The translations under genes were made by a program, and so were the position numbers. A stretch of DNA of 64,000 nt from Magnetovibrio sp. (GTDB taxonomy: Bacteria > Pseudomonadota > Alphaproteobacteria > Rhodospirillales > Casp-alpha2): positions 43,360 to 107,359 of the forward strand of contig PBLS01000043.1 in assembly GCA_002721825.1 (NCBI GenBank). Reading direction: 5' to 3'. Within the stretch, counting starts at the first letter, position 1. Every line of letters begins with the position of its first letter. The notes beneath the pieces were generated by a model. That model saw only the letters and a list, made by a program, of their open reading frames with translations, was not told the DNA's origin and did not search any database. Below are positions 5,066-44,181 of the stretch, in pieces.

Positions 5066-5075
5066 TGTAAATTCC

Positions 5076-9000: not shown

Positions 9001-9732
9001 CTAGTATTTGGTTGTTTTGCTGGTGTTTGTGCTGAGGATTGCAATATGCTTTAGGACCGGATGAATAACGAAATAAGGTTTTCTTGCATTTGAGCGTTGG
9101 CTAACTTTGTTTTTAAAGCCACCGTTTTGGGCCCAATGCGTTAGTCCTTCCATCAACAAATCGGCACGAATAGAAGCATCATACAGATTATCAATGTCAA
9201 GCCCCGGCGGGGGTGCAGGGTAAACCTTTTGTGCGACGATATCCCCGGTGTCGATACCCGAAGATAGTAGAATTAACGAGACGCCGCAGTCGGCACGTTC
9301 CAGGAGGCTATAATATACTGTAGTACTTCCCGGGTAATCTGGAAGTAAACCTGCATGGGCATGCAAGAGTGGGATTTTGAGTGACAAGACAGGGGTTTTT
9401 ACAATTTCGCCGCCGACTCCAGAATAAATAATTAAAGAGGGTTTTGCTGCCATTATTATGGTTACTACCTCTGGGTGATTTATGCCCAATTGGGGGACTT
9501 CGTGTATAACATCGGAGATATCAGATAGTGTGTTTCGAAGAGGCTCATGTGGGTCGAAGATGGGCACATTATTGGAGGATGGACCGTCAGCGTTGAGCGA
9601 GACCTCTTGGTCTTCGGCACCGTGGAGTACACTGCACCCAATTTTGATGCCACCATTACGTAAAGCTTGAGCATATGCCTTCGATCGACAGCTCGCATGC
9701 GCAAAAAATAAAACGTTTTTAAGTTTTAAAAT
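9001..9732 (-). CDS. formyltransferase-fold protein; probable non-canonical ATT start
   Basis: LHAHAGLLPDYPG and SSGIDTGDIVAQ resemble the Formyl_trans_N catalytic region. The track ORF starts at GTG 9567, but the frame is open to 9747 and encodes LKNVLFFAHASCRSKAYAQAL, a Rossmann beta1-alpha1. That stretch has no ATG, GTG or TTG. Confidence 0.5.
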   Translation of the reverse strand: MLKLKNVLFFAHASCRSKAYAQALRNGGIKIGCSVLHGAEDQEVSLNADGPSSNNVPIFDPHEPLRNTLSDISDVIHEVPQLGINHPEVVTIIMAAKPSLIIYSGVGGEIVKTPVLSLKIPLLHAHAGLLPDYPGSTTVYYSLLERADCGVSLILLSSGIDTGDIVAQKVYPAPPPGLDIDNLYDASIRADLLMEGLTHWAQNGGFKNKVSQRSNARKPYFVIHPVLKHIAILSTNTSKTTKY

Positions 9733-10319
9733 GTCACGCCTTTCTGATTACAGACTTTATCGACAAAGCGTAACTCGGCTTTAATCAATGCAGCTAACCA
9801 GCGTTGGTCACCTTGTTTTAATTGTGTCCGAAGTGCACAAAGCGTATCCATAACCTTTAAAAGCCCGTTTAGGTAACGTAAACTCTCGGACTGGACGATA
9901 GCGAAAGTTAAGACTTGCCCTAGTAAAAGGTAATTTCGTAAATTTTTATAATCTGTTTTATCTACGGCGCGCCAATCTGCCCCATAAGCGCTGTGTAGAT
10001 GCTTTGTGGTTTCGAATTTTTTAAGAATTTTCTCAAGATAATTTATGTTAGCAGGCGTCCCGTTCATCCCATTTTTGAAATCGTTGCATAACGTATGCAA
10101 AATAGATGTTGTTGTGTAAGGGGGATGCATACTTTCGTATTCTTGCCGCATAATTTTCAGTGTTGGTGTTTTGGGAGAGGGCAACTCGCCCAAAACATTG
10201 TATCGAGCTTGGTGCCACGCCTTTAGGAAGTGTGATCCGCCATATGGCGTATAGAAGTATGTATTGGGCTCTTCTAATATTGGGCCAGAGGCATATGGAT
10301 AACTTTCAACGTTTTTCAT
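9726..10319 (-). CDS. hypothetical protein
   Basis: 197-198 aa ORF in operon context (ATG at 10319 directly after TTG at 10322). I recognise no motif. Confidence 0.6.
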   Translation of the reverse strand: MKNVESYPYASGPILEEPNTYFYTPYGGSHFLKAWHQARYNVLGELPSPKTPTLKIMRQEYESMHPPYTTTSILHTLCNDFKNGMNGTPANINYLEKILKKFETTKHLHSAYGADWRAVDKTDYKNLRNYLLLGQVLTFAIVQSESLRYLNGLLKVMDTLCALRTQLKQGDQRWLAALIKAELRFVDKVCNQKGVTF

Positions 10320-10324
10320 CAAAA

Positions 10325-10840
10325 CTAGTCCCAGCCTACCATCTTAGCCACTGCTGAGACTGAGTCGTCAACAGAAATACCCTTTGAGGTATCTATAAAA
10401 AGATCCGGGTTCGGTGGAGACGGAAAATCGATATCGACGCCAACAACATTTTTTTCGAGCCCTTTTCGCGCAGCCTCATAAAGGCCTTTTGTATCACGGC
10501 GCTCAAGAACGCTCATCGGTGCATGCACGTGCACCTCATGATATTCACTGAACTCGGTCCTATTGGCGAGCAAAATTTTTGGAAAAATGCATAGGATGCA
10601 GCAAATAACATCGATTTTTTGTTTATCCAATAATCTGCATAACTCAACAATATGTTCTGCATTGCGATAGCGACCCCCGACAGTGTAGGCATCTGGCACG
10701 TGATTATGACGGAATACGCGACGAATTTCGTCCCCATCCAACAATACTGTTGCACGCTCAACACTCTTCCTTTTTTTGTACAGGTGTCGTCCGATTGTAG
10801 TCTTGCCAGCACCGGACATGCCTACTAACCATATCATCAT
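10325..10840 (-). CDS. APS-kinase-fold P-loop kinase; candidate cytidine-diphosphoramidate 3'-kinase (Cj1415-like)
   Basis: P-loop GMSGAGKTT and an RRDTKGLYEAARKG ... GVD segment typical of the CysC fold. It is 171 aa long. Its genomic context is the Cj1416, Cj1417 and Cj1418-type trio. Confidence 0.65.
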   Translation of the reverse strand: MMIWLVGMSGAGKTTIGRHLYKKRKSVERATVLLDGDEIRRVFRHNHVPDAYTVGGRYRNAEHIVELCRLLDKQKIDVICCILCIFPKILLANRTEFSEYHEVHVHAPMSVLERRDTKGLYEAARKGLEKNVVGVDIDFPSPPNPDLFIDTSKGISVDDSVSAVAKMVGWD

Positions 10841-10881
10841 AATATGATACCCACTTAATATGACGTTATGCTATGATTCGT

Positions 10882-12630
10882 CTATTGCCTGCTACGTAAA
10901 GCGGTTTGCCCAGCTTCACCAAAAGCCGCAATTATACGATCATCCGAGATTTCTGGAATTTCAGCCAATCTATTAGCTATGATTGGGAGAAAATTTTCAA
11001 CAACAGGATGAACTGGTTCGTAAATATTCTTCTGTTCAAATGGATCAGACACGATATTAAATAACTCAGGTCCAGCGGGGCTACAATGGTCGGTTGGGTC
11101 GAGAGTTTCTTTCCAAAGAAAGTTGAATTCTTTATTCCTGACCGCAGCATATATGGGCCGTTCAGTTAAAATACAGGACCCCCCATGGACCGTTTCAAGA
11201 ATGACTTCTGAGCGGTTTTTGACTGGCATGCTCGTTATTGGGGCTCCTTCCCATTTTGGATGTGATTCTATACCGGCCAATTGGGCCAAGGTTGGGCCTA
11301 GGTCGAGTAGGGTAACGAGGCTATCAATGGTACCGCCTTTGAGGCTGGGGTGATTAATAAGTAATGGAACACGTACATTGTGACTATAACAGCGAAAGTG
11401 ATGGCTAATATCGCCGTGTTCACCGAGCTCTTCCCCGTGATCTCCAAATACAACTACGATGGTATTTTCTCTCTTTCCAGATTTTTGAAGCGAGTCAATT
11501 ATGCGGCCCACCTGTTCGTCGACATAGCGAATGGAAGCATCGTACAAGGCCGACCAGTTTCGGAGTTCAGCGTCGGTTTCTGGACGTTTTTTTACTGCGA
11601 TTGAAATATCAATGTCACTAGGGTAACCCAAAGCTTCTAGATAGTGTTTAGTTTTCGAATACCAGGTTTTGCCGTAACCAGCACAATAGGGAACATGTGT
11701 ATCGAAAAAGTGTGCCCACATAATCCAAGGGCGTGAGCCGTCATACGCATGCATACGATGGCAGATACGGTCTGCCAGGTCTTTCCCATCAACATACCTT
11801 TTAAAACGCATATTACGGAGGCTCGCCCACTTTGGTGCTAGTTGCCTAAGTACCAGGTTGGATATCTGAAACACAAATTCATCAATCAGCTTTTTAGGGT
11901 GCCGCGCTAAGCGCCATTCGGCTCCGAGGTATTCATGTGGTTGAAATGGACGTTTAAAGTGGCGTTGTGTATAGGAGACTTGATCGCGTTCGAAGGCATT
12001 TCGGTGATTTGAGACAATAGCTTTGATTTTTTCAAAATTGTAACCATCATTAACAAATCTCGAATTTGGAAAATCACGTTTGTCCTCATGGTAGAACTTG
12101 ATACGTTGATTGCAGTAATTGTCGATCCAATCTAGAAGCCCACGAACAAAAGGAGCAACTTGAGCAGCCAGTTCAGAGCTTGAAAGTTTGCCGTTCTGAT
12201 ATGACTGGAGTTGTGATCGGAGGACAGGCTCTGCCGTTCCAACAAGGGAATTGAGCACAAACATGTACTCTAAATAATCTACCCCACTCTTGTAGCCAAA
12301 TAGTTCGCTAGCCCATTGAAAGGTCGATAGAACGTGAGATGTATAGTTGTGGCTGGAAAAATGGTGAAATATTGTCGGGGGCCGATTTACTACTCCCATA
12401 TCGTATCCACCATAAGATAACGGCCGGGTTGACGTCATCAATGAGTGCAGAGATGCTTGGGTAAATGCTGCTGTGCTTACCGCATTGGTACAGATAAGAG
12501 AGTTTTTCCGAAGCTTATCTAATGTTGGCGTTGTTGGCCTTTCGTATCCCAAGAAACTTGCTCGGTCAGCGCGAAAAGCGTCTACCGATAGCAAAAGAAT
12601 ATTGGGACGCTGAGAGTTTACGTTATCCAC
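10882..12630 (-). CDS. alkaline-phosphatase-superfamily (sulfatase-like) protein lacking the formylglycine motif
   Basis: NILLLSVDAFRAD and FGDHGEELGEHG are sulfatase-family metal-site motifs. Where C/S-x-P-x-R is expected, the sequence reads AAFTQASLHS (Thr57 at 12460-12462). Confidence 0.7.
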   Translation of the reverse strand: MDNVNSQRPNILLLSVDAFRADRASFLGYERPTTPTLDKLRKNSLICTNAVSTAAFTQASLHSLMTSTRPLSYGGYDMGVVNRPPTIFHHFSSHNYTSHVLSTFQWASELFGYKSGVDYLEYMFVLNSLVGTAEPVLRSQLQSYQNGKLSSSELAAQVAPFVRGLLDWIDNYCNQRIKFYHEDKRDFPNSRFVNDGYNFEKIKAIVSNHRNAFERDQVSYTQRHFKRPFQPHEYLGAEWRLARHPKKLIDEFVFQISNLVLRQLAPKWASLRNMRFKRYVDGKDLADRICHRMHAYDGSRPWIMWAHFFDTHVPYCAGYGKTWYSKTKHYLEALGYPSDIDISIAVKKRPETDAELRNWSALYDASIRYVDEQVGRIIDSLQKSGKRENTIVVVFGDHGEELGEHGDISHHFRCYSHNVRVPLLINHPSLKGGTIDSLVTLLDLGPTLAQLAGIESHPKWEGAPITSMPVKNRSEVILETVHGGSCILTERPIYAAVRNKEFNFLWKETLDPTDHCSPAGPELFNIVSDPFEQKNIYEPVHPVVENFLPIIANRLAEIPEISDDRIIAAFGEAGQTALRSRQ

Positions 12631-13414
12631 GAGCGCGAGAAGTGATCGAATTTAAATTGATGAAGGCCGATAGCGTTTGTGATTTTATCATGTCTTTGTA
12701 GAGTTGATAATCACCAAAAGTGTCTATTTCAAGCCATCCTCCATGGATCGGTACTGCAGTAACAGGAGTATCGTTTAGAATAATACGCATTAAGATTTCC
12801 GTCATGTAGAGGTTGTCGGCTGCAGCCAGCGAATTGGCCACCTGTCGTTCTGTTTTCCGAGCGCTAGAAAGAGCATCTATTCCATTACCGCGAAATCGCA
12901 TTAAACCTATATACTGCCCTTCAATTTCATTAAGGTTAGCAGGTTTGCGTCCAATTTCTTTTATATGGCCCTGACCATCGAGTTTAAGCGTTTCCGCATC
13001 TTTTATTGGTTCTTCGAATCTAGCGTCCCAAAGTTGACGCCAATTCTTGTCGATTACTACAGAGATGTCGTTTTTATGTCTGAGAAGAGATTGTACGACG
13101 GAAGGTTCGTAGACTATGTCGCTATAGCTTACAATGAAATCGTTGCCAAATTCATTGGCGACTAAAAACAAAGATTCGACCATATTCGTTTCAGCCCAGC
13201 GCTTATTTAAACGTATATCAATCCCTGGTATATCGATTTGTTCGGACTTGTAACCTGTTATAACCGTTATATCATTCAACCCGGATGCGCGGAGAGCTGT
13301 AATCTGCATGTAAAGGAGCGATATACCGCTGAGTTGGGTCAGGCATTTAGGAGCGCTGGAAGTTAAGGGGTTGAGGCGACGACCCCGCCCGGCTGCAAGG
13401 ATGAACACTTTCAT
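12623..13414 (-). CDS. nucleotidyltransferase; candidate CTP:phosphoglutamine cytidylyltransferase (Cj1416-like)
   Basis: ILAAGRGRRLNPLT signature of the NTP-transferase fold. It is 263 aa long. ATGA overlap with the upstream gene. Confidence 0.65.
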   Translation of the reverse strand: MKVFILAAGRGRRLNPLTSSAPKCLTQLSGISLLYMQITALRASGLNDITVITGYKSEQIDIPGIDIRLNKRWAETNMVESLFLVANEFGNDFIVSYSDIVYEPSVVQSLLRHKNDISVVIDKNWRQLWDARFEEPIKDAETLKLDGQGHIKEIGRKPANLNEIEGQYIGLMRFRGNGIDALSSARKTERQVANSLAAADNLYMTEILMRIILNDTPVTAVPIHGGWLEIDTFGDYQLYKDMIKSQTLSAFINLNSITSRARG

Positions 13415-14037
13415 GCCCAGAAAGCCCCGTGCGAAACTAGCTTACCAAATAATAGTCTGTCTTCAACTGGTGCGGGCGATCGCTCCGGGTGCCACATGAT
13501 GCAGGTTATAGGGTTTTCCCTATCAACCATTGCCTCAATGTAGCCTTTTTCGTCTGTTGCAATTGCTGTAAATTTATTCGGCAATTGATTAGCCCGAAGC
13601 CCCAAGGCATGAAAAGAGTTTACATGTGTAGCTTTGGGGTAAACTAGCCTACCGGGTCCATGGAAAAGTATCTTGTGAGTTGTCGCAATGTGGCCGGATA
13701 AATTCTCAAGTTTTGCACCAGCAAGCTGCGCACACATTTGCATGCCGCGGCAAATAGCCAGGACCGGCAATTTGGTAATGATTGCATGGGCTAATAACCG
13801 TTCTTCTTGATTGTCGCGTACTGGGCATTGGCCGTAGTCGTCACCTCCCGTCAATATCAATATATTGCATTTTTGCGCATCTAAGAAAGCTTCTGGGTCA
13901 TTAAGGACGTTTGGGATAATGATAGGCCAGGCCTCCCAGTGATTTAAAAGACGAATCCAATCGTGACTAATTGAGTCTCTAAGTTCGATGTAATCACTGG
14001 TTTCGGTAATACGTGGACTGATGGCTACTTTAATCAT
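13411..14037 (-). CDS. class I glutamine amidotransferase / peptidase C26; candidate gamma-glutamyl-CDP-amidate hydrolase (Cj1417-like)
   Basis: Nucleophile elbow LAICRGMQ and the His-Glu pair MWHPE. ATGA overlaps on both sides. Confidence 0.65.
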   Translation of the reverse strand: MIKVAISPRITETSDYIELRDSISHDWIRLLNHWEAWPIIIPNVLNDPEAFLDAQKCNILILTGGDDYGQCPVRDNQEERLLAHAIITKLPVLAICRGMQMCAQLAGAKLENLSGHIATTHKILFHGPGRLVYPKATHVNSFHALGLRANQLPNKFTAIATDEKGYIEAMVDRENPITCIMWHPERSPAPVEDRLLFGKLVSHGAFWA

Positions 14038-16424
14038 ATGCTGTAGTCGTGGGTTAAAATTCTACGAGAACTGCAATTCAATTCGACGGCTTCTGCTTTT
14101 GACAGCGAGCTAAAAAGCCGTTCGCCACAACCAATAGCTGCGGGCAAACTAAACTCTGCACATCGAATGGCCATGTGTGAGTTTGCGCCGCCGTACTTTG
14201 TAATCAAACCGGCTATTTTTCGAGAAAATATCCAGTCAAAACCTGGATCGGCACTTTCGATCATCACGATGCGCCCGTCGATATCGAGATCTTCTAGCCC
14301 TCCAATAAGGACTGTAGAAGCGGTGAGTGACTTATTTGTTATAAACGTTGGTTGCCCGATAGGAACCCGAATAACCAATATATCGTTTGGCTCCGTAATT
14401 AAATGTGGAAGCCGAACTGCGCGATGTATTTCATATTTTTTTTTGGCTTCCAATATTTCCCCTTTAGCTTCGGTTGGGTCCATACCATCCATGATGTAGT
14501 CGATAGGTAGGTAGGATAGATCCTCACGAGTAAGTCCTAAACGCTCTCCGTAACCAGTTAAGGCCCTTAGCAAATCACTAAGGCTGCGTGTAAACGCAAA
14601 CTTAGCGGCTTCGCGCGCCTTTATTGAGCTAGCGATATAATGGAGTAATTCCCGCGGTCCAAATTTAAATTGGGCTTCAGCTATTGCTACTTCCAGTGCC
14701 TTTAGTGTTTGACTATCAGGCTCATAATTAGTGCGTGTAATTTCTTGTTTAATTCTATCCCGGCCTAGAAATAGTGATGGGTTTTCATCATAGCGTGGAG
14801 AGTTAATGTCATACGAACCTGGTCGTAAATGGCCATATTTTTCTAAGAATACATTCATAGATTGCCGTTGATGGGTCAAGTGATTCATACTAACTGCCAC
14901 ATCCGTGGCAATTGTGCGAATGCCGCGCATGAAACAGTCTGATGTATTTACCGAAATCACTCCACGTTTTACCAGGGAACGAAGTAGTTGAACGCCTATG
15001 AATCCATGACGTGCTAACATTGCGAATGGCAAGGTTCCATTATTGCGGCAGTTTTCGATAGTTTGCCGCATTTCTGATAGTTTTGTTGGTGGTTCGGCAC
15101 TCAAAAGGGCATTGGCTTTATTAAGAAGTCCGTCAATTGGAGCGATCTTGCCAATAACGAGCTTTTCAGTGAGTTGGTGGAGATGGCTCTCCATTGCATC
15201 TATTTCATTTTCCGCTAAAGAGAAACGCGACAATAAATTCTGAGCGGATGGCCAATCAAAATCGCGGCATGTCACGGCTATAGTGAACTCAAGTTTATCG
15301 TGGTGATCACGGTTATCTGCGAGAAACAACAATTGATTGGATACCAGGCGGTCACTGATATTTGCATCAAAATTATTTGGTAAAAATGAATTTAAGCTAA
15401 GACGAACATCTATGTACGGTCGTCCACACCATTCAGCCATGAGCGGTTGGTCGACTAATCGATATCCCATCTGTTGCCGGGCAACAGCCCAAACGCTATC
15501 TGTAATCAACGTTTTGTACAATGATGTAGCGAGAGGTCGTGGAGCGGATCCAATCATCTCCGCGGGATTCCAGTCGGTCATTTCTCCATACACGGTTGTT
15601 TTTCCGGCCAACCCATCGGCTTTGCGCATGGATTTTTCTATTCTCGCGTATCCTTTACTTATAACGTTTGCGATGTCTTTTTCGGAGACAAGACCCCAGC
15701 GCCCGTGAGCGGCAATAGGCCGGACTTGAAATATATAAATTTGGTCGTTTTCCGTAATGCAGAATTCTAGATCTAAGGTGGAGATGCCGACTATATCTTC
15801 AATATTTCGGACACTTTCGAGTAGACTCTGAAACCGTTCTGAATGCAGAACTGCAGTATGTTCTCGGTGAATATAGATCGACTTACTTTCAGCACCACCT
15901 GTGACTGTGTCAGTTCGGCCCGTCATATCATCGTAGTTTACAACGTAATAAGGGCTGCCATTATTTAGGTCTCTGGTCATTACAACACCGGCTATAACGA
16001 CGTCTTCAACCATTGGTTGGATCAAAACTTGATCATTATCATGGCGTTGCTTATAGCTCTCAAAAACATTCTCAATAGCTAAAGCAAGAGGTTCGTGTTC
16101 TGGTAGAACGTTTATAAGACTTAGGTTTGCGCCCGCTTGCGATTCTATAATGCTATCTTCACCTACGGCACTCGAACGAACAGCCAAGTTTTTCCCCTCA
16201 AATTTTTTTATGATAGCGTCAAGAAGTGACTGCTTATCCGCCAACCATTCAGCAGCTTGAACGACAAATTGTTCACATAGTTTTGCACCTCGTATACGTC
16301 CTTTCAGAGCTTCGAGGTTGTTTGCTTTTGTAGAAAACTTGAACACTTCTCTATTATTTAATTTTCGGTGAGAATTGATAGGTTTATCTAATTTGTGTGT
16401 TCCGATGTTCATTACACGATTCAC
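14034..16424 (-). CDS. PEP-utilising / PPDK-type three-domain enzyme; candidate L-glutamine kinase (Cj1418-like)
   Basis: N-terminal ATP-grasp signature LAVRSSAVGEDS. C-terminal swivelling phosphohistidine motif GGANSHMAIRCAEFSLPAAIG, with the His codon at 14175-14177. It is 796 aa long. GTGA overlap with the ABC gene (alternative ATG at 16412). Confidence 0.65.
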   Translation of the reverse strand: MNRVMNIGTHKLDKPINSHRKLNNREVFKFSTKANNLEALKGRIRGAKLCEQFVVQAAEWLADKQSLLDAIIKKFEGKNLAVRSSAVGEDSIIESQAGANLSLINVLPEHEPLALAIENVFESYKQRHDNDQVLIQPMVEDVVIAGVVMTRDLNNGSPYYVVNYDDMTGRTDTVTGGAESKSIYIHREHTAVLHSERFQSLLESVRNIEDIVGISTLDLEFCITENDQIYIFQVRPIAAHGRWGLVSEKDIANVISKGYARIEKSMRKADGLAGKTTVYGEMTDWNPAEMIGSAPRPLATSLYKTLITDSVWAVARQQMGYRLVDQPLMAEWCGRPYIDVRLSLNSFLPNNFDANISDRLVSNQLLFLADNRDHHDKLEFTIAVTCRDFDWPSAQNLLSRFSLAENEIDAMESHLHQLTEKLVIGKIAPIDGLLNKANALLSAEPPTKLSEMRQTIENCRNNGTLPFAMLARHGFIGVQLLRSLVKRGVISVNTSDCFMRGIRTIATDVAVSMNHLTHQRQSMNVFLEKYGHLRPGSYDINSPRYDENPSLFLGRDRIKQEITRTNYEPDSQTLKALEVAIAEAQFKFGPRELLHYIASSIKAREAAKFAFTRSLSDLLRALTGYGERLGLTREDLSYLPIDYIMDGMDPTEAKGEILEAKKKYEIHRAVRLPHLITEPNDILVIRVPIGQPTFITNKSLTASTVLIGGLEDLDIDGRIVMIESADPGFDWIFSRKIAGLITKYGGANSHMAIRCAEFSLPAAIGCGERLFSSLSKAEAVELNCSSRRILTHDYSI

Positions 16425-18178
16425 GAGATAGGCATAGATTCGAGGGATTTAAAATGGCCACCGGATTTTATTAATTCCGCGTAAGTTCCATGTTCCACAA
16501 TGTGGCCATTCTTAAAAACGTAAATCTTATCCGCTCGGCGCAGGGTAGAAGGACGATGTGAAATAATGATGATAGTCATTCTATGCGCGATGCTTTCAAT
16601 CGCGCTCTGAATAAGGTGTGCTGACTCTGCGTCAAGGGCACTTGTTGCCTCATCTAGGAATAGGACATCTGGTTGGCGCACTAAAGCGCGGGCAAGCGAT
16701 AGACGTTGTTTCTGTCCCCCCGATAGTCGCACGCCGCCTTCGCCCAGGTTTGTCTCCATACCCTCAGGCAACTCCTCAACGACTTCGGAGAAGTGAGCCA
16801 ATTGCATACTTTCGTTTATTAACATCTGATCAACAGTGCTGTTGGCAAATAAAATATTGTTGCGAACAGAGTCGTTGAATATAACAATATCTTGTGAAAC
16901 GTAACCAATTCGTTGTCGCCAAGTTGCTAAATTAATATCGGTTATCGAGATCCCGTCTATTGATAAACGACCAGAGTTTGGCTTGTGTAGGCCAATTAAA
17001 AGATCAACTAGCGTAGATTTTCCGGATCCTGAGCGGCCGACAATTGCAACAATTTGGTTTTTGCGGATTGAGAAAGAAATGTCTTTCAACACTGGCTTTG
17101 TCGAGGTCGGATACGAAAAAGTAACGTCTTCAAACTCTATTTTTTGCTCGAACTGCCTAAGTGATACCCCGGTGGGGTTCATGTCTTCACGGGCGCCTCT
17201 ACTTTCATTGAGGAGCTGGTCTACCGAAGATAAGCCCGCCGTATAGGCTGTATAGCCTTGGGAAAATTGCTGAAATTGAGCAATTCGAGGCGCTATTCTT
17301 GCCATGAAAATAAGAAACACTAAAGTCGATGATACTGGGATAGTATAAATCTCTGTTGCCACACCCAGAACTACGGCGAGCAAAATCACTGGGAGTGACT
17401 GGACTATGTAATAGACACGCATGTGATTTACTTCCGTATTAACAGTAGCTTCATAGACACCTGAAACGTGTTTATCTATCCGCTTTGTTGCTAGGCTTTC
17501 AACTGCGTTCGATTTTATCAACTTAGCGCCTTTTAAGAGCTCAATGGCATGAAAAAGTAGTTTTGTATTTTGTTCTGTACTGAACTCGCCAAGCCATTTT
17601 GCACGTTTATGGAGTGGTCGAACCACAATTGCTACAAGAACTGCAAAGGCAATTGATATGATCAGTAAATTGGGAGAAAGAAAAAATGATATTCCAATAA
17701 AGAGCAGAACTTGTGCTAGGACGCCGGCCGATAAGATTTCGAACCTTAAGGCATGGCTGGCGCGGTGTGTTTCACTAATTAGCCGGTTAAAAATGTCTCC
17801 GTGTGATTGCTCTGTGAGATATAACCACTGAGATCGAAACAGATTCTCTACCATGGTCTCTCGCACTTTTCGAGCATATCCCTGCTGTGCTTTAATTAAA
17901 AGTACATTATGTGTGTAACTAAGTGCTTGCGAGGAAAGTATGATGATAGGGATGCAAATCAACAACCATACAACGGTAACAGGTATGTGAAGAAAATGAA
18001 AAACTGCCATAATGAGCTCAAAAAATTTATCGCCAGCTTCGCTTTTCTCATCTGACATAAGACGCAGTAATGGAATGAATAGCGTAAGGCCGATACCCTC
18101 AGCAGCGCCCGCGAAAACACTCATTGCGAGCGTGGCACGTGTACCAGGTAGTCGACCAAGTGTTGAGAAAAGCCGCAT
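16421..18178 (-). CDS. ABC exporter, fused permease/ATPase (MsbA-type half transporter)
   Basis: Hydrophobic N-terminal half. Walker A GRSGSGKST, signature LSGGQKQRLSLARAL, Walker B VLFLDEATSALD. Confidence 0.9.
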   Translation of the reverse strand: MRLFSTLGRLPGTRATLAMSVFAGAAEGIGLTLFIPLLRLMSDEKSEAGDKFFELIMAVFHFLHIPVTVVWLLICIPIIILSSQALSYTHNVLLIKAQQGYARKVRETMVENLFRSQWLYLTEQSHGDIFNRLISETHRASHALRFEILSAGVLAQVLLFIGISFFLSPNLLIISIAFAVLVAIVVRPLHKRAKWLGEFSTEQNTKLLFHAIELLKGAKLIKSNAVESLATKRIDKHVSGVYEATVNTEVNHMRVYYIVQSLPVILLAVVLGVATEIYTIPVSSTLVFLIFMARIAPRIAQFQQFSQGYTAYTAGLSSVDQLLNESRGAREDMNPTGVSLRQFEQKIEFEDVTFSYPTSTKPVLKDISFSIRKNQIVAIVGRSGSGKSTLVDLLIGLHKPNSGRLSIDGISITDINLATWRQRIGYVSQDIVIFNDSVRNNILFANSTVDQMLINESMQLAHFSEVVEELPEGMETNLGEGGVRLSGGQKQRLSLARALVRQPDVLFLDEATSALDAESAHLIQSAIESIAHRMTIIIISHRPSTLRRADKIYVFKNGHIVEHGTYAELIKSGGHFKSLESMPIS

Positions 18179-18186
18179 ACTTTAAC

Positions 18187-18921
18187 TTACGTTTTTTTTA
18201 ATGTGCTTGGTCTTGCAATCATGAAATATTGTTCGAAGATCAAATTAGCGCCGTTGACTAGCATTCTCTCGCCGTTTTCGAGTCGAACTGTATATTGTCT
18301 TATTGGATTAGCATCTTTTTCAAGGTCTATAGGTAGAACGAAACGCTCAAATTCCGTAGAATATCCTTTTGCTAAAAAAAACTCAGCAATACGAGCTTTC
18401 GAATACCAGGCGAAACCAGTTTCCCAACTTTGGTCGTTTTGGCGGTTTCGAAACTTGATCTTTACATCCAAATCATTTGAATTGAAGGCAGAGAAGATGA
18501 TGAGTTTTCCCTTGGGTGTTAGCCATGATAACCATTTATCTAGGACCGGATAAGGGTTTTCAAATACGGCCAAAATGCCCGAGGCAATCAAAATATCATA
18601 GGGTTTTTCCGGCTCAAACGAGAATGCATCGGCGCTATGAAGATGCACGTCGTAGTTTTGTAAGTTCTCCTTTGCTCGTTCAATCAAGGCGGGACTGAGC
18701 TCAAGGCCGTGTAATTCAGCAGTTGGAAAAAGTTCTCGAATGAGTAGCAATGTTGCTCCTGTCGCGCACCCAATGTCGAGAAGGCGACCATTAAAACCGT
18801 CGTCCGAACGTTCCAAAATTCGGCACAGATATTTTTCGTGCTCCTTTTGGGGGCGTTCCGATAAGTAGGCGCCAATTTGGCGATTATTTGACTCAATGGT
18901 CATACTCACCCTTTCTATCAT
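18187..18921 (-). CDS. class I SAM-dependent methyltransferase
   Basis: Motif I LLDIGCATGATLL. An alternative ATG at 18903 has AAGGG upstream. Confidence 0.85.
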   Translation of the reverse strand: MIERVSMTIESNNRQIGAYLSERPQKEHEKYLCRILERSDDGFNGRLLDIGCATGATLLLIRELFPTAELHGLELSPALIERAKENLQNYDVHLHSADAFSFEPEKPYDILIASGILAVFENPYPVLDKWLSWLTPKGKLIIFSAFNSNDLDVKIKFRNRQNDQSWETGFAWYSKARIAEFFLAKGYSTEFERFVLPIDLEKDANPIRQYTVRLENGERMLVNGANLIFEQYFMIARPSTLKKT

Positions 18922-18957
18922 AGCTTCTATTTATTTGTGTGCAGTTTTTCTGGAAGA

Positions 18958-20841
18958 TCATACATTTAGGACCGATGGACCTTCAGACGGTGCAACCTGT
19001 GTCATGATTAAGTCAGCAATTTTTTGATCGACATCTAGTGCATGTGCGCCAAAGAACCGCGACCAGTATGGTTCCTGCTGCATCATTTTGGGAAAATTTG
19101 AGACTAAGCTTTCAGGGTCCTCGTGGGCTAATACGGCGGCCTCCAAATCCTTGGCGTTGCTAGAAATCGGTTTTTCAAAATCTTGTGAACCCAGGATACC
19201 CATGAGGGTATTGGAGTCGTACTCGGGCTCATGGATAATTACTGGTCGACCGAGGGCAATCGTTTGATAGATGCAGGACGATAAATTAGTGATTAACAGG
19301 TCGTGGGATTTCATCGCATCAACAAACGTACCAGAGGTATTCAGAGCGATGGATCCTGTTACCCCCATACGTTTCATTAGGTCAGGCAAGTATTCATCTA
19401 AATTTTGTGGCCCCGCGTGTTGGCGATAGGTGAAAGAGTATCCCTTGGGGACAAGGTTTCGGACAACTGTTAGAAAATCTATCATGTACGTATCGACGTT
19501 GTGCACGCGCTTTACCGTATGGGTTAATCCGGCGCCAAAACCAATTATCAGAACCCGTTTTCTGGTTGCGGGCCGTGTTTTTGCGCCTGTAACTGCGGCC
19601 ATGTGTGAGATCAAGGTGCTGCCAATAGACGGACACCGTTCGGCGTCCTTTTCGGCGATGTGCGTGCCGTACGGATGCTCGTCGCCATGGCAAATCCATT
19701 TAAGATTGTGGTGGAGTTTGCTGAGAGTATTCAAATTCAATGGTAGCGAATTCATTCCGTGTCCCATGAAAACGACTTGCGTAGAAGTCTGCGGCGCAAG
19801 GTGGATAATTGCTCTTGCCGAGGCGCTGACCCCGTTAATGACGACGAGTTTTGGGCGAAGCGCGCGTAGCATGCGTTTTGCTTGCAGTATTTTAACAACA
19901 TGCATTATTAAGCGTGTGCCCATAGATAGAGATAGCAGTCGCGAAAAGTAGCGAACGTAGTCGATTCCATCATAAACAAAAGGATTTTTGTCTTGATTTC
20001 GGGAGAGGGCTGCGGCCCGCTGGCGAAGCTTATGAATGGCACGCAGATATTGGAGCGAAAACAATGGCGCAAAATGATCGAATCGAATTGCAATCGCATT
20101 ATGGCCCGGACGATCCGTGTAGACATCAATTTCAGGCCGCTCCGAAAGGAATTTGATCAGCCGAGATGCGCCGGGATGATAAAACAGATATACGCCAGGT
20201 GTGTTGCCTGAAAAATAAGAGCGGAGCCGTGGCAGGATATAGCTTGGACGAAAGCCACCAGCATAGCTTTTCAGGACTTGGCCCAAACGTGTGAATGAAT
20301 AATTTGCGCCCCATTGTTTCACACTGTTTGATACTTGCAGTTCACGTAGGGGGACGCCTCGCGCCTTCGAAAAATCCACCAAGATTGTCCTTCGTGGCAT
20401 GCCTAGGGGATGACAGCGAAAAATACTCATTCCATCGATCATGTCACATACAATTTCTCTCAGGTTGGGACATTCATTTATTATTCGTTGACAAATTGTT
20501 CCGAATCGAACCATATGCGCCATCGCGAAATCTTGTGCGAGCTCAGGAGATACGAATTCACCAATTGATATACCATCGACAAGCACAGGATCATGCTCGC
20601 CGTCTTTGAACCAAGTCGTGGCAAAGTTTTCAGCGAAATCATCGATCTTCGCCGCCTCTGCTTGGGTCACGCGCGCTTCCGCATATTCAACACGTACGCC
20701 GTCGCGCTTAAGAGCATCCAGTATCGTTCTGTCGATCGTTTGAACAGGTCTAAAATAGGCAACTAAATCACCTGACATCGGTTTATCAGGTTGATTCACC
20801 AAATCATCAAGAAGGGTGTTTTCAATCAAAAAAAGTCGCAT
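18958..20841 (-). CDS. large orphan protein; candidate glycan phospho-group/sugar transferase
   Basis: 627-aa ORF. The C-terminal segment DLLITNLSSCIYQTIALGRPVIIHEP loosely resembles the TagF/CDP-glycerol phosphotransferase motif LITDYSS ... KPII. Otherwise I do not recognise it. Confidence 0.35.
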   Translation of the reverse strand: MRLFLIENTLLDDLVNQPDKPMSGDLVAYFRPVQTIDRTILDALKRDGVRVEYAEARVTQAEAAKIDDFAENFATTWFKDGEHDPVLVDGISIGEFVSPELAQDFAMAHMVRFGTICQRIINECPNLREIVCDMIDGMSIFRCHPLGMPRRTILVDFSKARGVPLRELQVSNSVKQWGANYSFTRLGQVLKSYAGGFRPSYILPRLRSYFSGNTPGVYLFYHPGASRLIKFLSERPEIDVYTDRPGHNAIAIRFDHFAPLFSLQYLRAIHKLRQRAAALSRNQDKNPFVYDGIDYVRYFSRLLSLSMGTRLIMHVVKILQAKRMLRALRPKLVVINGVSASARAIIHLAPQTSTQVVFMGHGMNSLPLNLNTLSKLHHNLKWICHGDEHPYGTHIAEKDAERCPSIGSTLISHMAAVTGAKTRPATRKRVLIIGFGAGLTHTVKRVHNVDTYMIDFLTVVRNLVPKGYSFTYRQHAGPQNLDEYLPDLMKRMGVTGSIALNTSGTFVDAMKSHDLLITNLSSCIYQTIALGRPVIIHEPEYDSNTLMGILGSQDFEKPISSNAKDLEAAVLAHEDPESLVSNFPKMMQQEPYWSRFFGAHALDVDQKIADLIMTQVAPSEGPSVLNV

Positions 20842-20940: not shown

Positions 20941-22965
20941 CTAGGCGTAATCCATGGAGCGATTATATTTGTTAGGCCGTATGCGGACGAAAAACTTGCT
21001 TCGGACGGCCTTGTCTTGGTCATCAAAGGTCCGAAATAACTGTTTTAATTCGTCTTTTTGCTGAGAGTTGAACGCAAACATCAACGGAATACCTTCCGGC
21101 TCTTCGTAATCGGTCAGCGATGCATTGTAGTTCAATGATTGCCACTTTACGAAATCGTACTTGAAGGTATCGACGATATCCTTCTCCACTTCATCATTAT
21201 TAAGGCGAGTAAGGCGAATATGTTTCATGCATCGTATGATTTCATCCACTTCGGTGTCAAAATGGATACCGCTGGTTAACATGAACTGTTTCGTTTGTTC
21301 ACAGGCATAGTTCAGAACGCTCTCGTAGAAATCCGCGAGATTCCCTAAAGCCATGTGGATGACATTGAACCCAATTTTCCGCTCGTTGATTTTCTCCCGT
21401 TGTTGCGAATCCTCCCAGAATGCTCTCATATCTTCAGGGCTATCAAAAAGTTCTTCACGTGTCATACGGTCGAAATCATCGAAATATTCTTTCGCACGAG
21501 TTGGAGCCTTGTCTCTATTTTCGAACAAATGCATGATCCAGTCGAAAATAGATAGATTTCGCCCCTTGAGAAAACGCCGGAGCATAAGAAAATTACGTTT
21601 GAAGTAAAAAATATAGATGAAAAAGTAGATGGATCTCGCACGATAATATTCGTCTTCAGAAAAAGTATTTGTTCCTATACAAACTTTTTCAATCTCATAA
21701 GAAGAAAATTCAGTAAAATCGGAGAACGCAGCTTCAGAGAACCGATACCGAATTTTCATATTATATTTGTCTTGAAAATTTTTGTCTTCGAATGGGATAC
21801 CCCAAAAAATCATCATCGTTTGGACAGTGCCTTCTGTCGCGCCAAAGTCATCAATCGTCTGACGCATACCTGAAATAAAGGATTCGAATGTCTCTTCAGG
21901 CATCGGAATTATAATAGCCGTATCCGTACTGTGGTCGTACTTGTCCTCGCTTAATTTTTCAAAAAATAATTCAGTTTCATTTTTGCTTGGTTTGACTCGT
22001 TTAATGATTTCTAGCGTCTTTTCATTTGTCGATTGAAAGTATAACCCAATTCTTACTAAACCATTCGAGTTGTAGACGGCGTCCATGAACGTACGGGACG
22101 GGTTTTTTGCCGTGCTAACGTTTAACTGTACCGGCCACCCAGTATCTTTCCGCGATTTTGAAAGGTATTCTAAAATCTGTACATCACGTTTGAGGATCCC
22201 AAAATTTGAATCTGTAATACTTAAATAAGCGTGTTCGGAACCCTTGGAACGGAAATAATTAATTTCTTCGATCACACGGTCGAAGGACATAGAGTATACT
22301 TTTTGATAATACGTCTGTGCTTCATGGCAGAATTGACAGGAGTACGGACAGCCACGAGTTGTTTGTAGCATTGGTTTGCTCAGTATAAATTCATCTAAAG
22401 CACCGGAAAGAATTGGCGAGGGTATTGTTTCATTTATATCCCGAATGCGTGCCATTTCATTGCGGCTGATAACCTTTTGATGTTCGTCACACCAGAAATC
22501 GAAACCGTTAATCTCCACGTCACGTTTTTGAATTATACGGCCATCTTTCGACATATAAGCTTTCAAGAATTGATGGAGCGCTTCTTCGCCCTCTCCATGA
22601 AGGTAAAAATCAACATAGCGCTTCCGGTCTTTCCAAAACTCGTTTAAATTTGCCTTATGCAATGGATAGTTGGGGCCTCCCTGAATTGTTACGACGGAGG
22701 GGTTTTGGGCTTTGGCATACTGGAATACTGTCCCAGCTAGTTGCTCGTTCCACATATAATTCGAAAGACACAAAATATCAGGCATCTTTTCTTGAATTGC
22801 AGCTAATATTTTTTCGACATGGACAAATAATTCGATGTCTATTTCATTATCAAGATAATGATCAGCATAGGCTTTGAGATAACCAATGTTTAACGGGAAC
22901 GAGTTAATCTCGCTACCCGGCGTTTCATAGCCGAGATGTCCTATATAAATTGTGAGCTTTCTCAT
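20941..22965 (-). CDS. B12-binding-domain radical SAM enzyme (class B type)
   Basis: N-terminal Rossmann-like region (ILCLSNYMW ... VVTIQGGPN) followed by RGCPYSCQFCHE (CxxxCxxC). Confidence 0.75.
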   Translation of the reverse strand: MRKLTIYIGHLGYETPGSEINSFPLNIGYLKAYADHYLDNEIDIELFVHVEKILAAIQEKMPDILCLSNYMWNEQLAGTVFQYAKAQNPSVVTIQGGPNYPLHKANLNEFWKDRKRYVDFYLHGEGEEALHQFLKAYMSKDGRIIQKRDVEINGFDFWCDEHQKVISRNEMARIRDINETIPSPILSGALDEFILSKPMLQTTRGCPYSCQFCHEAQTYYQKVYSMSFDRVIEEINYFRSKGSEHAYLSITDSNFGILKRDVQILEYLSKSRKDTGWPVQLNVSTAKNPSRTFMDAVYNSNGLVRIGLYFQSTNEKTLEIIKRVKPSKNETELFFEKLSEDKYDHSTDTAIIIPMPEETFESFISGMRQTIDDFGATEGTVQTMMIFWGIPFEDKNFQDKYNMKIRYRFSEAAFSDFTEFSSYEIEKVCIGTNTFSEDEYYRARSIYFFIYIFYFKRNFLMLRRFLKGRNLSIFDWIMHLFENRDKAPTRAKEYFDDFDRMTREELFDSPEDMRAFWEDSQQREKINERKIGFNVIHMALGNLADFYESVLNYACEQTKQFMLTSGIHFDTEVDEIIRCMKHIRLTRLNNDEVEKDIVDTFKYDFVKWQSLNYNASLTDYEEPEGIPLMFAFNSQQKDELKQLFRTFDDQDKAVRSKFFVRIRPNKYNRSMDYA

Positions 22966-23043
22966 ACTCTAGTTTCCCCTATGAGTCGGCATTCTGAATA
23001 ACTGAACCCCATGAGCTAAAACAAATAAGGGTTCTGAGTTTAT

Positions 23044-24909
23044 TCAACGACCTTTCCGTAAGTTTTCCATAGCCGGATTATCGCCGCTAAGCGCTCCAAA
23101 TTCATTATTAACCATCTTTCGTAGCGACTTGTAATCAAATTCTTGCCACTTCTTCCCGAACAAACACTTGAATTGGAACCCAATCCACTCAGTTAGGAGT
23201 TTGATTGTATAAACCCCCCCAAACTTTTTTAGGTTTTTTAGTATTGTTAGGATGAGTAAAAAATGCCGTGCACGGTAGGCAATTTTTGGATATGTCACTA
23301 GGGCTAAACCCCACTTCCCACGCGCGATCAAAGAAAAGAGGCTTGGGACCTCTGGGGTGTCGGAAACTGGAGGGCTTCCATCTCCCATTTTCGATGTTTC
23401 TATGATACGTAACGGATTCGCGTAGTACCCACTTTCGGCCTTAGCAGGTTGATAATATTCGAGATCGTTCATAAGAATTTTGTGGTACTGATTTAACCCG
23501 TGTGTTTGGACGTAGTGGTAGTTGACCTCAACGGTTATGCGTGGTCGCCATGTTTGACAAGTTAACGTAGGAACGTCAGTGAAGTTAAGAGTTGTAAACT
23601 CGTCATGAGCATTGTGATCGGAAATGAATATTAAATACTCTTCTTCCGCATCCATCCCCCTACCAATAATACCCTTGTGACGCGCGTATTCGTAGAGGGG
23701 CGTTCCTGGCAAAGCCTGTGCAAAATTACATGATAGTTGATTGGGGTTTTTCTGTGGGTCTAGTGCTTGTGCGTATTTGCAGAATTCAATGGTTTCTCCG
23801 ATGGTTTCGTTGTTTTCACCGGGCATACCAATCACAAGTGCTACGGCGCCAAATACGTTCCTTTCTGAAGTCCATGTGACCGCATCGTAGTTCTGTTGCA
23901 ATGATGCCTTCTTTTCCATAACCTGCAGCATTCGTTCGCTACCAGCCTCAAGCCCAAAACAGATTTCTGTACAACCTGACTCGATCATCAAGTCTAGAAG
24001 TTCGGGGTCCTTGCGGGTGACACGAAAGTTTACAGCCCAGAGTAGATCATATGATTTGAGCCTTTCGCAGAATTCTCGTAACCACTTAATGTCGGCTCCG
24101 AAATTTTCATCCCCAATTTCAAAAAAGCCAATATTATAGCGTTCTATCATGAAATCGATTCGGCGAAATACTTCGTCAAGTGAGAGAATTCTCTGACCTT
24201 TGGCCCAGCGGTGGCAATACGTGCACTTCGCCACACAACCCTTTGATGTGATAAGATTTGTCCAAGTTTTACCACGCCGATGAGCTTCGTGGGCACGCGG
24301 GTCTCTAAAATATTGGCGGAATCGTGAGATGTCTTTACTGACAGTTGGGAAATACTGATCAATATTACTAGATGACTCTAAATCAGTGATATCGTAATCG
24401 TAAATTTCTTCACTAGTTAGCGGATCAGAATACCCTGTGTTAACCAATTCATTATCTTCATTAAGTACTGCAAGACCCGGGATATCAATAAAGGTTTCGA
24501 TACCTTTTCCAGCATTTAGATGTTGAGCAATTTGAACCATCGGACGCTCGCCTTCGCCTAAGACCACCGCATCCACCTCAGTACGGTTTAGAATAATTTC
24601 GGCGCTGGCGCCCATAGGCCCCCCCAATACGATAACTGTATCTTCGCGTATTTTGCGCACCTCTGCCGCTAATTCCTTAGCCGCTTTATAAGATGTCGAG
24701 ACAACAGCGCTGATGCCTAGAACGTCTGGCCTTTCGCGTTTAAAATGATTTAGAATTTCTTCTTGGCTTGGGCGATTTCCATCAATGTCATAAAGCGACA
24801 CATCATTGAACCCGGCATTGCGAAGCCACTTCATTAGGACCAAGCTGCCGACCGGAGGGAAACTTGGTTTGTTAGGTCGAATTGGCAAAGTCGCGAAAAT
24901 TATCTTCAT
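23044..24909 (-). CDS. B12-binding-domain radical SAM enzyme (class B type)
   Basis: N-terminal VLGISAVVSTSY ... VIVLGGP region followed by SKGCVAKCTYCHR (CxxxCxxC). Confidence 0.75.
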   Translation of the reverse strand: MKIIFATLPIRPNKPSFPPVGSLVLMKWLRNAGFNDVSLYDIDGNRPSQEEILNHFKRERPDVLGISAVVSTSYKAAKELAAEVRKIREDTVIVLGGPMGASAEIILNRTEVDAVVLGEGERPMVQIAQHLNAGKGIETFIDIPGLAVLNEDNELVNTGYSDPLTSEEIYDYDITDLESSSNIDQYFPTVSKDISRFRQYFRDPRAHEAHRRGKTWTNLITSKGCVAKCTYCHRWAKGQRILSLDEVFRRIDFMIERYNIGFFEIGDENFGADIKWLREFCERLKSYDLLWAVNFRVTRKDPELLDLMIESGCTEICFGLEAGSERMLQVMEKKASLQQNYDAVTWTSERNVFGAVALVIGMPGENNETIGETIEFCKYAQALDPQKNPNQLSCNFAQALPGTPLYEYARHKGIIGRGMDAEEEYLIFISDHNAHDEFTTLNFTDVPTLTCQTWRPRITVEVNYHYVQTHGLNQYHKILMNDLEYYQPAKAESGYYANPLRIIETSKMGDGSPPVSDTPEVPSLFSLIARGKWGLALVTYPKIAYRARHFLLILTILKNLKKFGGVYTIKLLTEWIGFQFKCLFGKKWQEFDYKSLRKMVNNEFGALSGDNPAMENLRKGR

Positions 24910-38063: not shown

Positions 38064-38084
38064 ATATGCTGTTCCGATTCTTTT

Positions 38085-38786
38085 CTAGGTATCGTGCCGA
38101 TGGTAGACATAGGTAGTAGCGACCAATGCAAAGCCAAGCTTCTCATAAAACGCAACCGAAGCTGTATTTGCTTTTTGGGTGCCCACGCGCACAACAGCGC
38201 CGGGTTTGACCTTTGCTTGCAAGGTTTGGATCAAGGCTGTTCCGTGGCCAGTGCCGCGTTGGCAAGGAGCTACGGCAGTCAAGTCGATCACATAAGTTTC
38301 GCTGTCGGGGCGCAGGATCTGTAAAAACCCGACAACAGCGCCTTCGGCGGTTTCTGCGACCAGCATGTGATCGCCTCGCAGACCTCTAAAGAAATTGCGA
38401 GCCCAGGCCTCCTTGAGGGTGTCAGCGATCTCGTTAGGGATCGAGGCGTCACGGTGGAAGCGATCATGGGAGAAACCGGTTCTGGCGATTCGGGCCACAG
38501 ATTCCTCGTCGGAGGATCGGGCATAGCGGCAGGAATATGATGAGTTCAGTATCCGTCGCCCTTTCCATACGTAAGTTAGAGCCTCATCAGCCAGATGAAA
38601 CCCCTTTGATCTTAACCATGCGGCGAAGCTATCGTCGTCTTTTTTTGTTGCACAATACAAAAAACGCGGCCCCGAAGCCCGTGGGAGATCGCCCGTGCCA
38701 CCATTCAATCTATAGGTGGGCACGCCAAGTATCTCACCTAGCCATGGATCACTCAACAACAACTGATAATCCAGCGTGGCTATCAC
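38085..38786 (-). CDS. GNAT-family N-acetyltransferase (two-domain, WecD/PseH-like)
   Basis: Acetyl-CoA motif A QRGTGHGTALI. The start is uncertain (GTG at 38786 or one of the TTG codons at the upstream stop). The track ORF extends to 38861 inside the upstream gene. Confidence 0.7.
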   Translation of the reverse strand: MIATLDYQLLLSDPWLGEILGVPTYRLNGGTGDLPRASGPRFLYCATKKDDDSFAAWLRSKGFHLADEALTYVWKGRRILNSSYSCRYARSSDEESVARIARTGFSHDRFHRDASIPNEIADTLKEAWARNFFRGLRGDHMLVAETAEGAVVGFLQILRPDSETYVIDLTAVAPCQRGTGHGTALIQTLQAKVKPGAVVRVGTQKANTASVAFYEKLGFALVATTYVYHRHDT

Positions 38787-42617: not shown

Positions 42618-42649
42618 ATGATGATACCGTTTATCGTATTATTGTTTTA

Positions 42650-44130: not shown

Positions 44131-44133
44131 TTC

Positions 44134-44154: not shown

Positions 44155-44181
44155 CTGAACGTGCTCAGATGGTCAAAACGT

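Follow-up and report, generated by a model that had tools for sequence, protein, structure and literature searches.

Analysis of a 64,000-nucleotide stretch of DNA from Magnetovibrio sp. (contig PBLS01000043.1; the whole stretch is called the window below) has identified a unit of seven tightly spaced or overlapping genes on the minus strand (9001–16424), the core of which is probably the counterpart, outside Campylobacter, of Cj1418, Cj1417, Cj1416 and Cj1415, the proteins of the Campylobacter jejuni reference pathway for the precursor of O-methyl phosphoramidate (MeOPN) (PMC11800397; PMC6429109). The interpretation of the core as a cytidine diphosphate (CDP)-amidate pathway is well supported by inference: family membership, synteny and active-site motifs are shown by sequence comparison, and every substrate and product named below is predicted. 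A sequence-only reading of part of this DNA (10325–20841) had already proposed that four genes here belong to the families of Cj1415–Cj1418 and lie in the Campylobacter order in a host of another kind. The host is indeed an alphaproteobacterial metagenome-assembled genome (MAG) of 44% GC. The six minus-strand open reading frames (ORFs) on which that reading rested are where it had placed them, their translations contain VRSSAVGEDS, GGANSHMAIR, AICRGMQ, WHPE, LAAGRGRRL and GMSGAGKTT, and their Pfam families (PPDK_N and PEP-utilizers; Peptidase_C26/GATase; NTP_transf_3; APS_kinase) are those that it named. NCBIfam scores and a comparison of module kinases with CysC kinases likewise place the four proteins, the kinase with less certainty, in families of the Cj1415–Cj1418 type and not in the PpsA, PuuD or CysC clades.

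The core genes follow one another on the minus strand in the order 1418-1417-1416-(x)-1415, where x is a sulfatase-fold gene, with the tight spacing that had been described. By coordinates there are four-nucleotide overlaps at 14034–37 and 13411–14 and an eight-nucleotide overlap (GTGGATAA) at 12623–30; a further overlap claimed at 16421–24 stands only if the kinase-like gene begins at GTG 16424 (NCBI, 796 aa), since with the ATG at 16412 preferred by ENA (792 aa) it becomes an eight-nucleotide gap. The tightly coupled unit also runs downstream past 10325, as far as 9001. The 582-aa sulfatase-fold gene and the 585-aa exporter gene upstream of the core had both been passed over in the earlier reading. 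On comparative grounds the arrangement is well beyond chance, because the trio of kinase-like enzyme, amidotransferase and cytidylyltransferase, or the quartet, reappears in every related locus (numbered with the prefix L below) that has enough downstream sequence, the trio being found in about 33 loci from at least eight phyla.

The family assignment is clearest for the 796-aa enzyme. The NCBIfam equivalog model NF004508 matches residues 25–789 of its 796 residues with 842 bits, against a cut-off of 501, while models for phosphoenolpyruvate (PEP) synthase, pyruvate phosphate dikinase (PPDK) and rifampicin phosphotransferase give at most 63 bits; all ten kinase-like enzymes scored from related loci reach 830–945 bits on NF004508. 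The N-terminal region of the protein is ATP-grasp-like and its C-terminal domain is of the swivelling-His kind, and His750 in the latter, together with the surrounding GG.NSHM.IR, is unchanged across 20 homologues, as is RSSA..ED. KEGG-based JGI annotation labels many homologues of approximately 50% identity ‘glutamine kinase’.

Among the NCBIfam families, the 208-aa amidotransferase matches NF045546 best, over its full length and with 88 bits (E 9e-25). This is a model of gamma-glutamyl-CDP-amidate hydrolase, an activity characterised only for Cj1417; the runner-up is GMP synthase (E 7e-12). The same model is the best family for ten out of ten syntenic amidotransferases (89–137 bits). The class I Cys-His-Glu triad is kept (CRGMQ, WHPE), and the gene adjoins those for the glutamine kinase and the cytidylyltransferase with four-nucleotide overlaps on either side. 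The 263-aa transferase, which carries the signature G-x-G-R-G-x-R-L and comes directly after the amidotransferase in about 33 loci, has as its closest solved relative LicC, a CTP:phosphocholine cytidylyltransferase (1jyk, 2e-16). The 171-aa kinase scores 138 bits on NF004041/PRK05541 (cut-off 127) and 98 bits on the adenosine phosphosulfate (APS) kinase model TIGR00455 (apsK), below the cut-off of 138.7. It matches other module kinases with 114–165 bits (139 bits for that of L004) and the genuine CysC that lies beside ATP sulfurylase in L004 with 70 bits. The canonical ISP motif, present in the CysC of L004, is absent from the window kinase. L004 thus holds both a genuine CysC and a separate module kinase, and by these sequence criteria the module kinases are distinct from genuine CysC within that locus. 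Searches of the PDB returned no close entry.

A number of observations weigh against this interpretation. The likeness to Cj1415–Cj1418 was judged through NCBIfam models. The amidotransferase lies below the equivalog cut-off of NF045546 (88 against 250 bits), which all of its environmental homologues miss as well, and the NCBIfam scan gave no match to a model specific for Cj1416 or Cj1415. NF004041 may also take in true APS kinases, and the best PDB relative of the window kinase, 7yq0, was deposited as an adenylyl-sulfate kinase. No phosphoramidate glycan has been reported from any non-Campylobacter organism known to carry the module. A rival possibility is that the scaffold is shared and the product different, so that the kinase-like enzyme acts on another amide, an amine or a hydroxyl and the pathway yields another CDP-activated head group (P–N or P–O). 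Such an outcome would account for amidotransferase scores so far under the Cj1417 cut-off, and it fits the fact that NCBI itself labels NF004508 ‘hypothetical protein’. It would fit, too, with the accessory genes, since neither the alkaline-phosphatase-superfamily gene nor u198 nor the formyltransferase-like gene is known from the cj1413c–cj1448c capsule locus of C. jejuni. We nevertheless consider it unlikely. NF045546 is still the best hydrolase family by 13 orders of magnitude in E-value, a glutamine-amidotransferase fold with an intact Cys-His-Glu motif fits the release of glutamate, homologues 50% identical to the kinase-like enzyme carry the name glutamine kinase, and the trio is kept as a unit.

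Public names at the locus (adenylyl-sulfate kinase; COG3119 sulfatase) would suggest instead a sulfation cassette, in which the 171-aa kinase would be a CysC making 3'-phosphoadenosine 5'-phosphosulfate (PAPS), the 582-aa protein would act as a sulfatase and the remaining genes would belong to unrelated sugar-nucleotide chemistry; in L002, L004, Azospirillum and Vibrio the module does have sulfotransferase and ATP-sulfurylase genes nearby. In the window itself, however, no ATP sulfurylase or sulfotransferase was seen, and L004 has a true CysC in addition to its module kinase. We have set the sulfation cassette aside as very improbable because the window kinase, lacking the ISP motif that the CysC of L004 keeps, fails TIGR00455 and because the alignment shows that the C/S-x-P-x-R formylglycine motif of type I sulfatases is absent from the 582-aa protein. 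Finally, a chance juxtaposition of housekeeping genes (PpsA, PuuD, GlmU/RmlA-like and CysC), for which the generic nature of the Pfam domains might speak, is refuted by the NF004508 score and by synteny conserved in at least eight phyla, with overlapping stop and start codons and a glycan-operon location also against it, and can be given virtually no credence.

Table 1. Features of the module and its surroundings in the window; activities are predictions
Feature	Position	Strand	Remarks
Formyltransferase-superfamily protein	9001..9732	-	Pfam Formyl_trans_N; probable ATT start
u198	9726..10322	-	198 aa; fold without known match; follows kinase
APS-kinase-fold kinase, predicted cytidine diphosphoramidate 3'-kinase (Cj1415 type)	10325..10840	-	171 aa, APS_kinase
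Alkaline-phosphatase-superfamily (sulfatase-fold) enzyme	10882..12630	-	582 aa, Pfam Sulfatase; Thr for formylglycine Cys
LicC-like nucleotidyltransferase, predicted CTP:phosphoglutamine cytidylyltransferase (Cj1416 type)	12623..13414	-	263 aa, NTP_transf_3
Class I glutamine amidotransferase/peptidase C26, predicted gamma-glutamyl-CDP-amidate hydrolase (Cj1417 type)	13411..14037	-	208 aa
L-glutamine kinase family protein, Cj1418 type	14034..16424	-	NF004508/PRK05849, PPDK_N + PEP-utilizers; MBM09230.1
Fused transmembrane domain–nucleotide-binding domain ATP-binding cassette (ABC) exporter, HepA/MsbA/PglK-like	16421..18178	-	585 aa; immediately upstream of kinase-like gene
Class I S-adenosylmethionine (SAM) methyltransferase	18187..18921	-	244 aa, Pfam
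GT-B/TagF-like protein	18958..20841	-	627 aa; model and motifs
Two B12-binding radical SAM enzymes	20941..24909	-	context
Operon head: MarR_EPS regulator, RfaH, nucleotide-sugar dehydrogenase, cytidine monophosphate (CMP)-transferase, PseC-like aminotransferase, dehydratase, acetyltransferase, NeuB-like synthase	37035..45356	-	

Our current view of the CDP-amidate pathway, by homology to the Raushel pathway, is that the 796-aa enzyme would use ATP and its swivelling His750 to phosphorylate L-glutamine on its amide nitrogen, and that the LicC-like transferase would join the resulting L-glutamine phosphate with CTP to give CDP-L-glutamine. The hydrolase of amidotransferase C26 fold would then remove glutamate to leave cytidine diphosphoramidate, the 3'-OH of which would be phosphorylated by the APS-kinase-fold enzyme. 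The activated phosphoramidate may go into decorating the glycan that the surrounding operon produces, and the adjacent MsbA/PglK-type ABC transporter probably exports this glycan. For the transfer itself, the best candidate is the Thr-nucleophile enzyme of the alkaline phosphatase superfamily, which might work through a covalent phosphoramidyl-Thr intermediate in the manner of the phosphoethanolamine transferases; the pair of u198 and formyltransferase-like protein could be an alternative for this step or could add a further tailoring step. A more far-reaching proposal is that environmental bacteria, abundant marine groups (Magnetovibrio-like, SAR116, Prochlorococcus, Methylophaga) included, make P–N glycan decorations by late steps unlike those of Campylobacter, with the cytoplasmic Thr-nucleophile enzyme as a new class of phosphoramidate transferase and u198 and the formyltransferase-like protein for tailoring (e.g. 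N-acylation), the result being an undescribed modification on polysaccharides containing nonulosonic acid; this we put forward as a speculative and rather doubtful extension.

Judged by gene neighbourhood, the conserved partners of the core are the Thr-nucleophile alkaline-phosphatase-superfamily enzyme, which lies inside the interval of the sequence-only reading, and u198 and the formyltransferase-like protein, which lie downstream of it. In alignment, the sulfatase C-A-P-S-R position of the first reads T-Q-A-S-L, and Thr occupies the formylglycine position in the window protein and in six homologues (L001–L004 and the distant L012 and L035), that is, in all the module-linked sulfatase-fold proteins, whereas the GDHGE metal motif is retained. 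No N-terminal signal or transmembrane segment was seen in the sequence of the 582-aa protein; lacking membrane domain and signal peptide, it would be cytoplasmic. We consider it plausible that this enzyme is a cytoplasmic phosphoramidate transferase or phosphodiesterase because of the Thr at the nucleophile position, the GDHG motif and a phosphoethanolamine-transferase-like context. The second partner, u198, has no Pfam, NCBIfam or PDB match, profile search of the PDB included. In 11 loci it comes after the kinase; a kinase–u198 fusion is seen in a Rhizobiaceae MAG (L024, 1–1016), and a Prochlorococcus single-cell genome (L031, 2331–3707) has u198 joined to the formyltransferase-like protein. 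The two fusions tie together three proteins that the window encodes separately.

The formyltransferase-like protein is kept with the module in 12 loci. It has H-x-H...D rather than N-x-H...D, and its profile matches Fmt, GART and ArnA in the PDB at 1e-10 to 1e-5. The gene was cut to 188 aa in the ORF list because there is no ATG, GTG or TTG at the start defined by homology (9726–9735, minus strand). Homologues align in frame from ATT 9732, a codon preceded by GAAAGG; a gene starting there has a 7-nt overlap with the end of u198, at its stop. The open frame begins after an upstream TAA (9750–9748), the gene is intact from 9732, and ATT 9732 is most likely the start. Elsewhere, the ABC exporter is kept beside the glutamine-kinase gene in L002, L003, L004 and L013, and a TagF-like CDP-alcohol phosphotransferase follows the trio in L025 and on a Vibrio alfacsensis plasmid, which fits a CDP-activated donor. 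If the chemistry holds, the variable genes after the trio (the alkaline-phosphatase-superfamily gene, the TagF-like gene, and u198 with the formyltransferase-like gene) provide concrete candidates for the transfer step.

Comparison with known systems brings out both likeness and difference. With the MeOPN pathway of C. jejuni the locus shares the four protein families, their transcriptional order, the tight coupling and the setting in a surface-polysaccharide locus, and the best model for the window hydrolase is the Cj1417-specific hidden Markov model. In contrast to C. jejuni, the locus has an additional alkaline-phosphatase-superfamily gene ahead of the kinase and the u198 and formyltransferase-like genes after it, and where C. 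jejuni has kps and heptose genes there are an ABC exporter and nonulosonic-acid genes; moreover, the host is a marine alphaproteobacterium, and the chemistry of its module is a prediction. No homopolymeric run of G or C longer than 7 nt occurs in 8000–25000, the longest being two C7 runs inside a radical SAM gene, so that there is no obvious phase-variation tract in this region. Phosphoethanolamine transferases and LtaS resemble the 582-aa protein in sulfatase/alkaline phosphatase fold, nucleophile Thr and GDHG metal motif, and the sequence context T-x-x-S-L-x-x-(L)M-x-S is one that we take to resemble EptA. The 582-aa protein differs from these enzymes in lacking a membrane domain or signal peptide and in having an insertion of about 190 aa, and its donor would be a CDP-linked phosphoramidate and not a phospholipid. 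A parallel in approach is provided by the MeOPN-like clusters of Borgs, where genes of the Cj1418/1417/1416 type were deduced from fold and sequence outside Campylobacter, although Borgs are archaeal extrachromosomal elements and carry a PEP-mutase fusion; these clusters, too, are predicted from genes (bioRxiv 10.1101/2024.11.05.622173).

Upstream of the exporter, the sequence-only reading had seen positional counterparts of Cj1419/20 in the methyltransferase and of Cj1421/22 in the 627-aa protein, and neither analogy has survived. The methyltransferase is one of at least eight in the operon, and its homologues were found only in the two closest relatives, L001 and L002; the functions of Cj1419/20 are themselves unassigned in Campylobacter (PMC11800397). 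The 627-aa protein has no Pfam or NCBIfam match. A word-indexed search found a single relative, and a full scan with HMMER, covering 1.84 billion representatives, raised this to 110 (50% identity representatives) of approximately 600–650 aa; none of the ten most AT-rich of these representatives was Campylobacter-like, all ten being small clusters without a functional name. The protein is the only large upstream candidate and is without a Campylobacter-like match, in a comparison that did not include the Cj1421/22 sequences themselves. The three family members whose contexts were sampled all lie in nonulosonic-acid clusters (NeuB/CTP_transf_3/DegT/DUF4910) that have no glutamine-kinase module.

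The AlphaFold model of the 627-aa protein built on a 61-sequence alignment is confident (pLDDT 93, pTM 0.92; pLDDT 41 with a two-sequence alignment), and Foldseek places it in the GT-B superfamily, with UDP-GlcNAc 2-epimerases and NeuC as the top folds and TagF also significant. The family motifs YRxH(P) and DLLITNLSS...GRPVII resemble the KxHP and LITDYSS...KPII motifs of TagF. The parallel with the TagF/TagB CDP-glycerol glycerophosphotransferases is therefore one of fold and motifs, together with the bona fide Glyphos_transf gene that follows the trio in Vibrio alfacsensis and L025; set against it are the missing Pfam match, an hhalign profile–profile probability of only 8%, the 2-epimerase/NeuC top folds and the occurrence of the family without the module. 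A profile search of the PDB with the family gave nothing significant. Although its fold and TagF-like motifs are compatible with phosphoramidate transfer, we have dropped the 627-aa protein as leading candidate because its family occurs without the module. From sequence and model it is best read as a CMP- or CDP-dependent transferase of the nonulosonic-acid part of the operon, and not as a dedicated counterpart of Cj1421/22. As for the two radical SAM enzymes further upstream, they show weak similarity to KedN5 C-methyltransferases and PhpK/Sden_1168 P-methyltransferases, and in L002 the gene immediately upstream of that for the glutamine kinase is a copy of the second, 62% identical to it.

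The wider distribution of the trio shows that the locus belongs to a large family of which only part is annotated. Carriers include Alpha-, Beta- and Gammaproteobacteria, Verrucomicrobia, Planctomycetes, Omnitrophota, Bacteroidetes, Firmicutes, Fusobacteria and Cyanobacteria, and relatives of the kinase-like enzyme number in the thousands (2,096 and 7,577 clusters in two homologue searches). A scan of GTDB species genomes for the motif N-S-H-M-x-I-R-x-A-E-F, restricted to AT-rich codons, returned 29 loci, all true homologues, in Polynucleobacter, Methylophaga, Idiomarina, Aliidiomarina, Rhizobiaceae, Marinicaulis, SAR116, Opitutales, Puniceicoccales, Planctomycetes, Omnitrophota, Bacteroidetes, Flavonifractor, Fusobacterium and Prochlorococcus; no Campylobacter was among the 29 species that this AT-rich-codon scan matched. 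When the AT-rich protein of Fusobacterium served as seed, the homologue search gave at least 120 unnamed matches. In cultured strains, the gene lies on plasmids or chromids of Azospirillum, Vibrio alfacsensis, Cupriavidus taiwanensis, Roseovarius, Agrobacterium vitis and Microvirga. Among the cultured carriers are Vibrio alfacsensis VA-1, Azospirillum lipoferum 4B, Aliidiomarina halalkaliphila IM 1326, Flavonifractor sp. An306 and Roseovarius pelagicus. As judged from gene neighbourhoods, the module is a conserved functional unit that is not unique to the window, because the amidotransferase and nucleotidyltransferase follow the kinase-like gene wherever there is sufficient sequence and because all ten proteins scored on each of NF045546 and NF004508 agree.

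Two architectures can be distinguished. In type A, to which the window belongs, the core with its APS-kinase-fold enzyme is followed by u198 and then by the formyltransferase-like protein, these last two coming after the kinase in 11–12 loci. In type B, the kinase-like enzyme is about 1000 aa long through an N-terminal nucleotidyltransferase fusion (L009, L027, L028, L034, L035 and L040, the last being Vibrio alfacsensis plasmid NZ_CP140104.1), there is no APS-kinase-fold gene nearby, and the next gene encodes a TagF-like CDP-glycerol glycerophosphotransferase (L025, Vibrio alfacsensis) or a sulfatase-fold protein (L012, L035). A further neighbour is found on Azospirillum lipoferum 4B plasmid AZO_p6 (L041, 5632–8172), where an 846-aa ‘adenylyl-sulfate kinase’ has its APS-kinase domain only at 658–801 and no Pfam domain in its N-terminal 650 residues; it lies just upstream of a methyltransferase and a glutamine-kinase homologue. 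A full-length glutamine-kinase homologue of 34.6% identity is also present in a 9.5-kb ‘Bacteriophage sp.’ record from human faeces (GenBank MT837632.1); the record could be a bacterial fragment that was misbinned, or the copy could be borne by a phage.

The statement that phosphoramidate decoration is established essentially only for Campylobacter capsules needs qualification. Reviews do still tie MeOPN to Campylobacter, describing it as confined to that genus and the glutamine kinase as specific to C. jejuni (PMC6429109; PMC9561416), but rarity was overstated given the thousands of homologues, the JGI label, the Borg preprint and the phosphoramide in the lipooligosaccharide core of Xanthomonas campestris. 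Across at least eight phyla the predicted precursor genes make up a conserved module, carried by marine plankton, gut anaerobes and cultured strains, and NCBI mostly names them hypothetical protein, PuuD or CysC. Should the chemistry prove right, P–N-linked phosphorus would be widespread on bacterial surfaces and possibly an unrecognised fraction of marine organic phosphorus.

Naming at the locus itself follows the same pattern (locus tags CMF69_06585–06615; proteins MBM09226–33). NCBI calls the kinase-like enzyme, the transferase, the sulfatase-fold protein, the ABC exporter, the methyltransferase and the 627-aa protein ‘hypothetical protein’, the amidotransferase ‘gamma-glutamyl-gamma-aminobutyrate hydrolase’ and the kinase ‘adenylyl-sulfate kinase’, so the expectation in the earlier reading that routine annotation would miss the pathway was right for this very locus. 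RefSeq names of homologues include ‘PEP-utilizing enzyme’ and ‘phosphocholine cytidylyltransferase family’. The same sequence is also present on Tara Oceans contigs.

The module sits within a minus-strand operon of approximately 45 kb, of which a MarR_EPS regulator and RfaH (44182–45356) are the first genes. To judge by its gene content, the operon encodes a nonulosonic-acid pathway: it includes a NeuB-like synthase, a PseC-like aminotransferase, CMP-transferases, WbuX and two asparagine-synthase-like amidotransferases, along with at least eight methyltransferases and three radical SAM enzymes, and is followed by a Wzy/GT2 region. Rfam families were not found in the window, and scans of it for promoters, terminators and ops (GGCGGTAG) gave counts at chance level. 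An ops-like octamer (TGCGGTAG) with one mismatch to the latter lies at 44122–44129 on the minus strand, between rfaH and the first biosynthetic gene, the window-wide rate of such octamers being that expected by chance. Downstream of the module, the block 81–8891 encodes a radical SAM/SPASM protein, a KdsB-like CMP-transferase, two Gfo/Idh/MocA oxidoreductases, an aminotransferase, an FkbM methyltransferase and an AP_endonuc_2 (sugar isomerase-like) protein, and these families suggest a pathway to a second CMP-activated sugar, as yet undefined; it is kept in L002–L004 and L036, nonulosonic-acid clusters included. The DUF4910/DUF2172/HTH_47 (aminopeptidase-like) protein encoded at 34814–36226 recurs in nonulosonic-acid clusters that hold the 627-aa GT-B family (L036, L039). 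The nearest match in the homologue search with the window proteins was at 53% identity.

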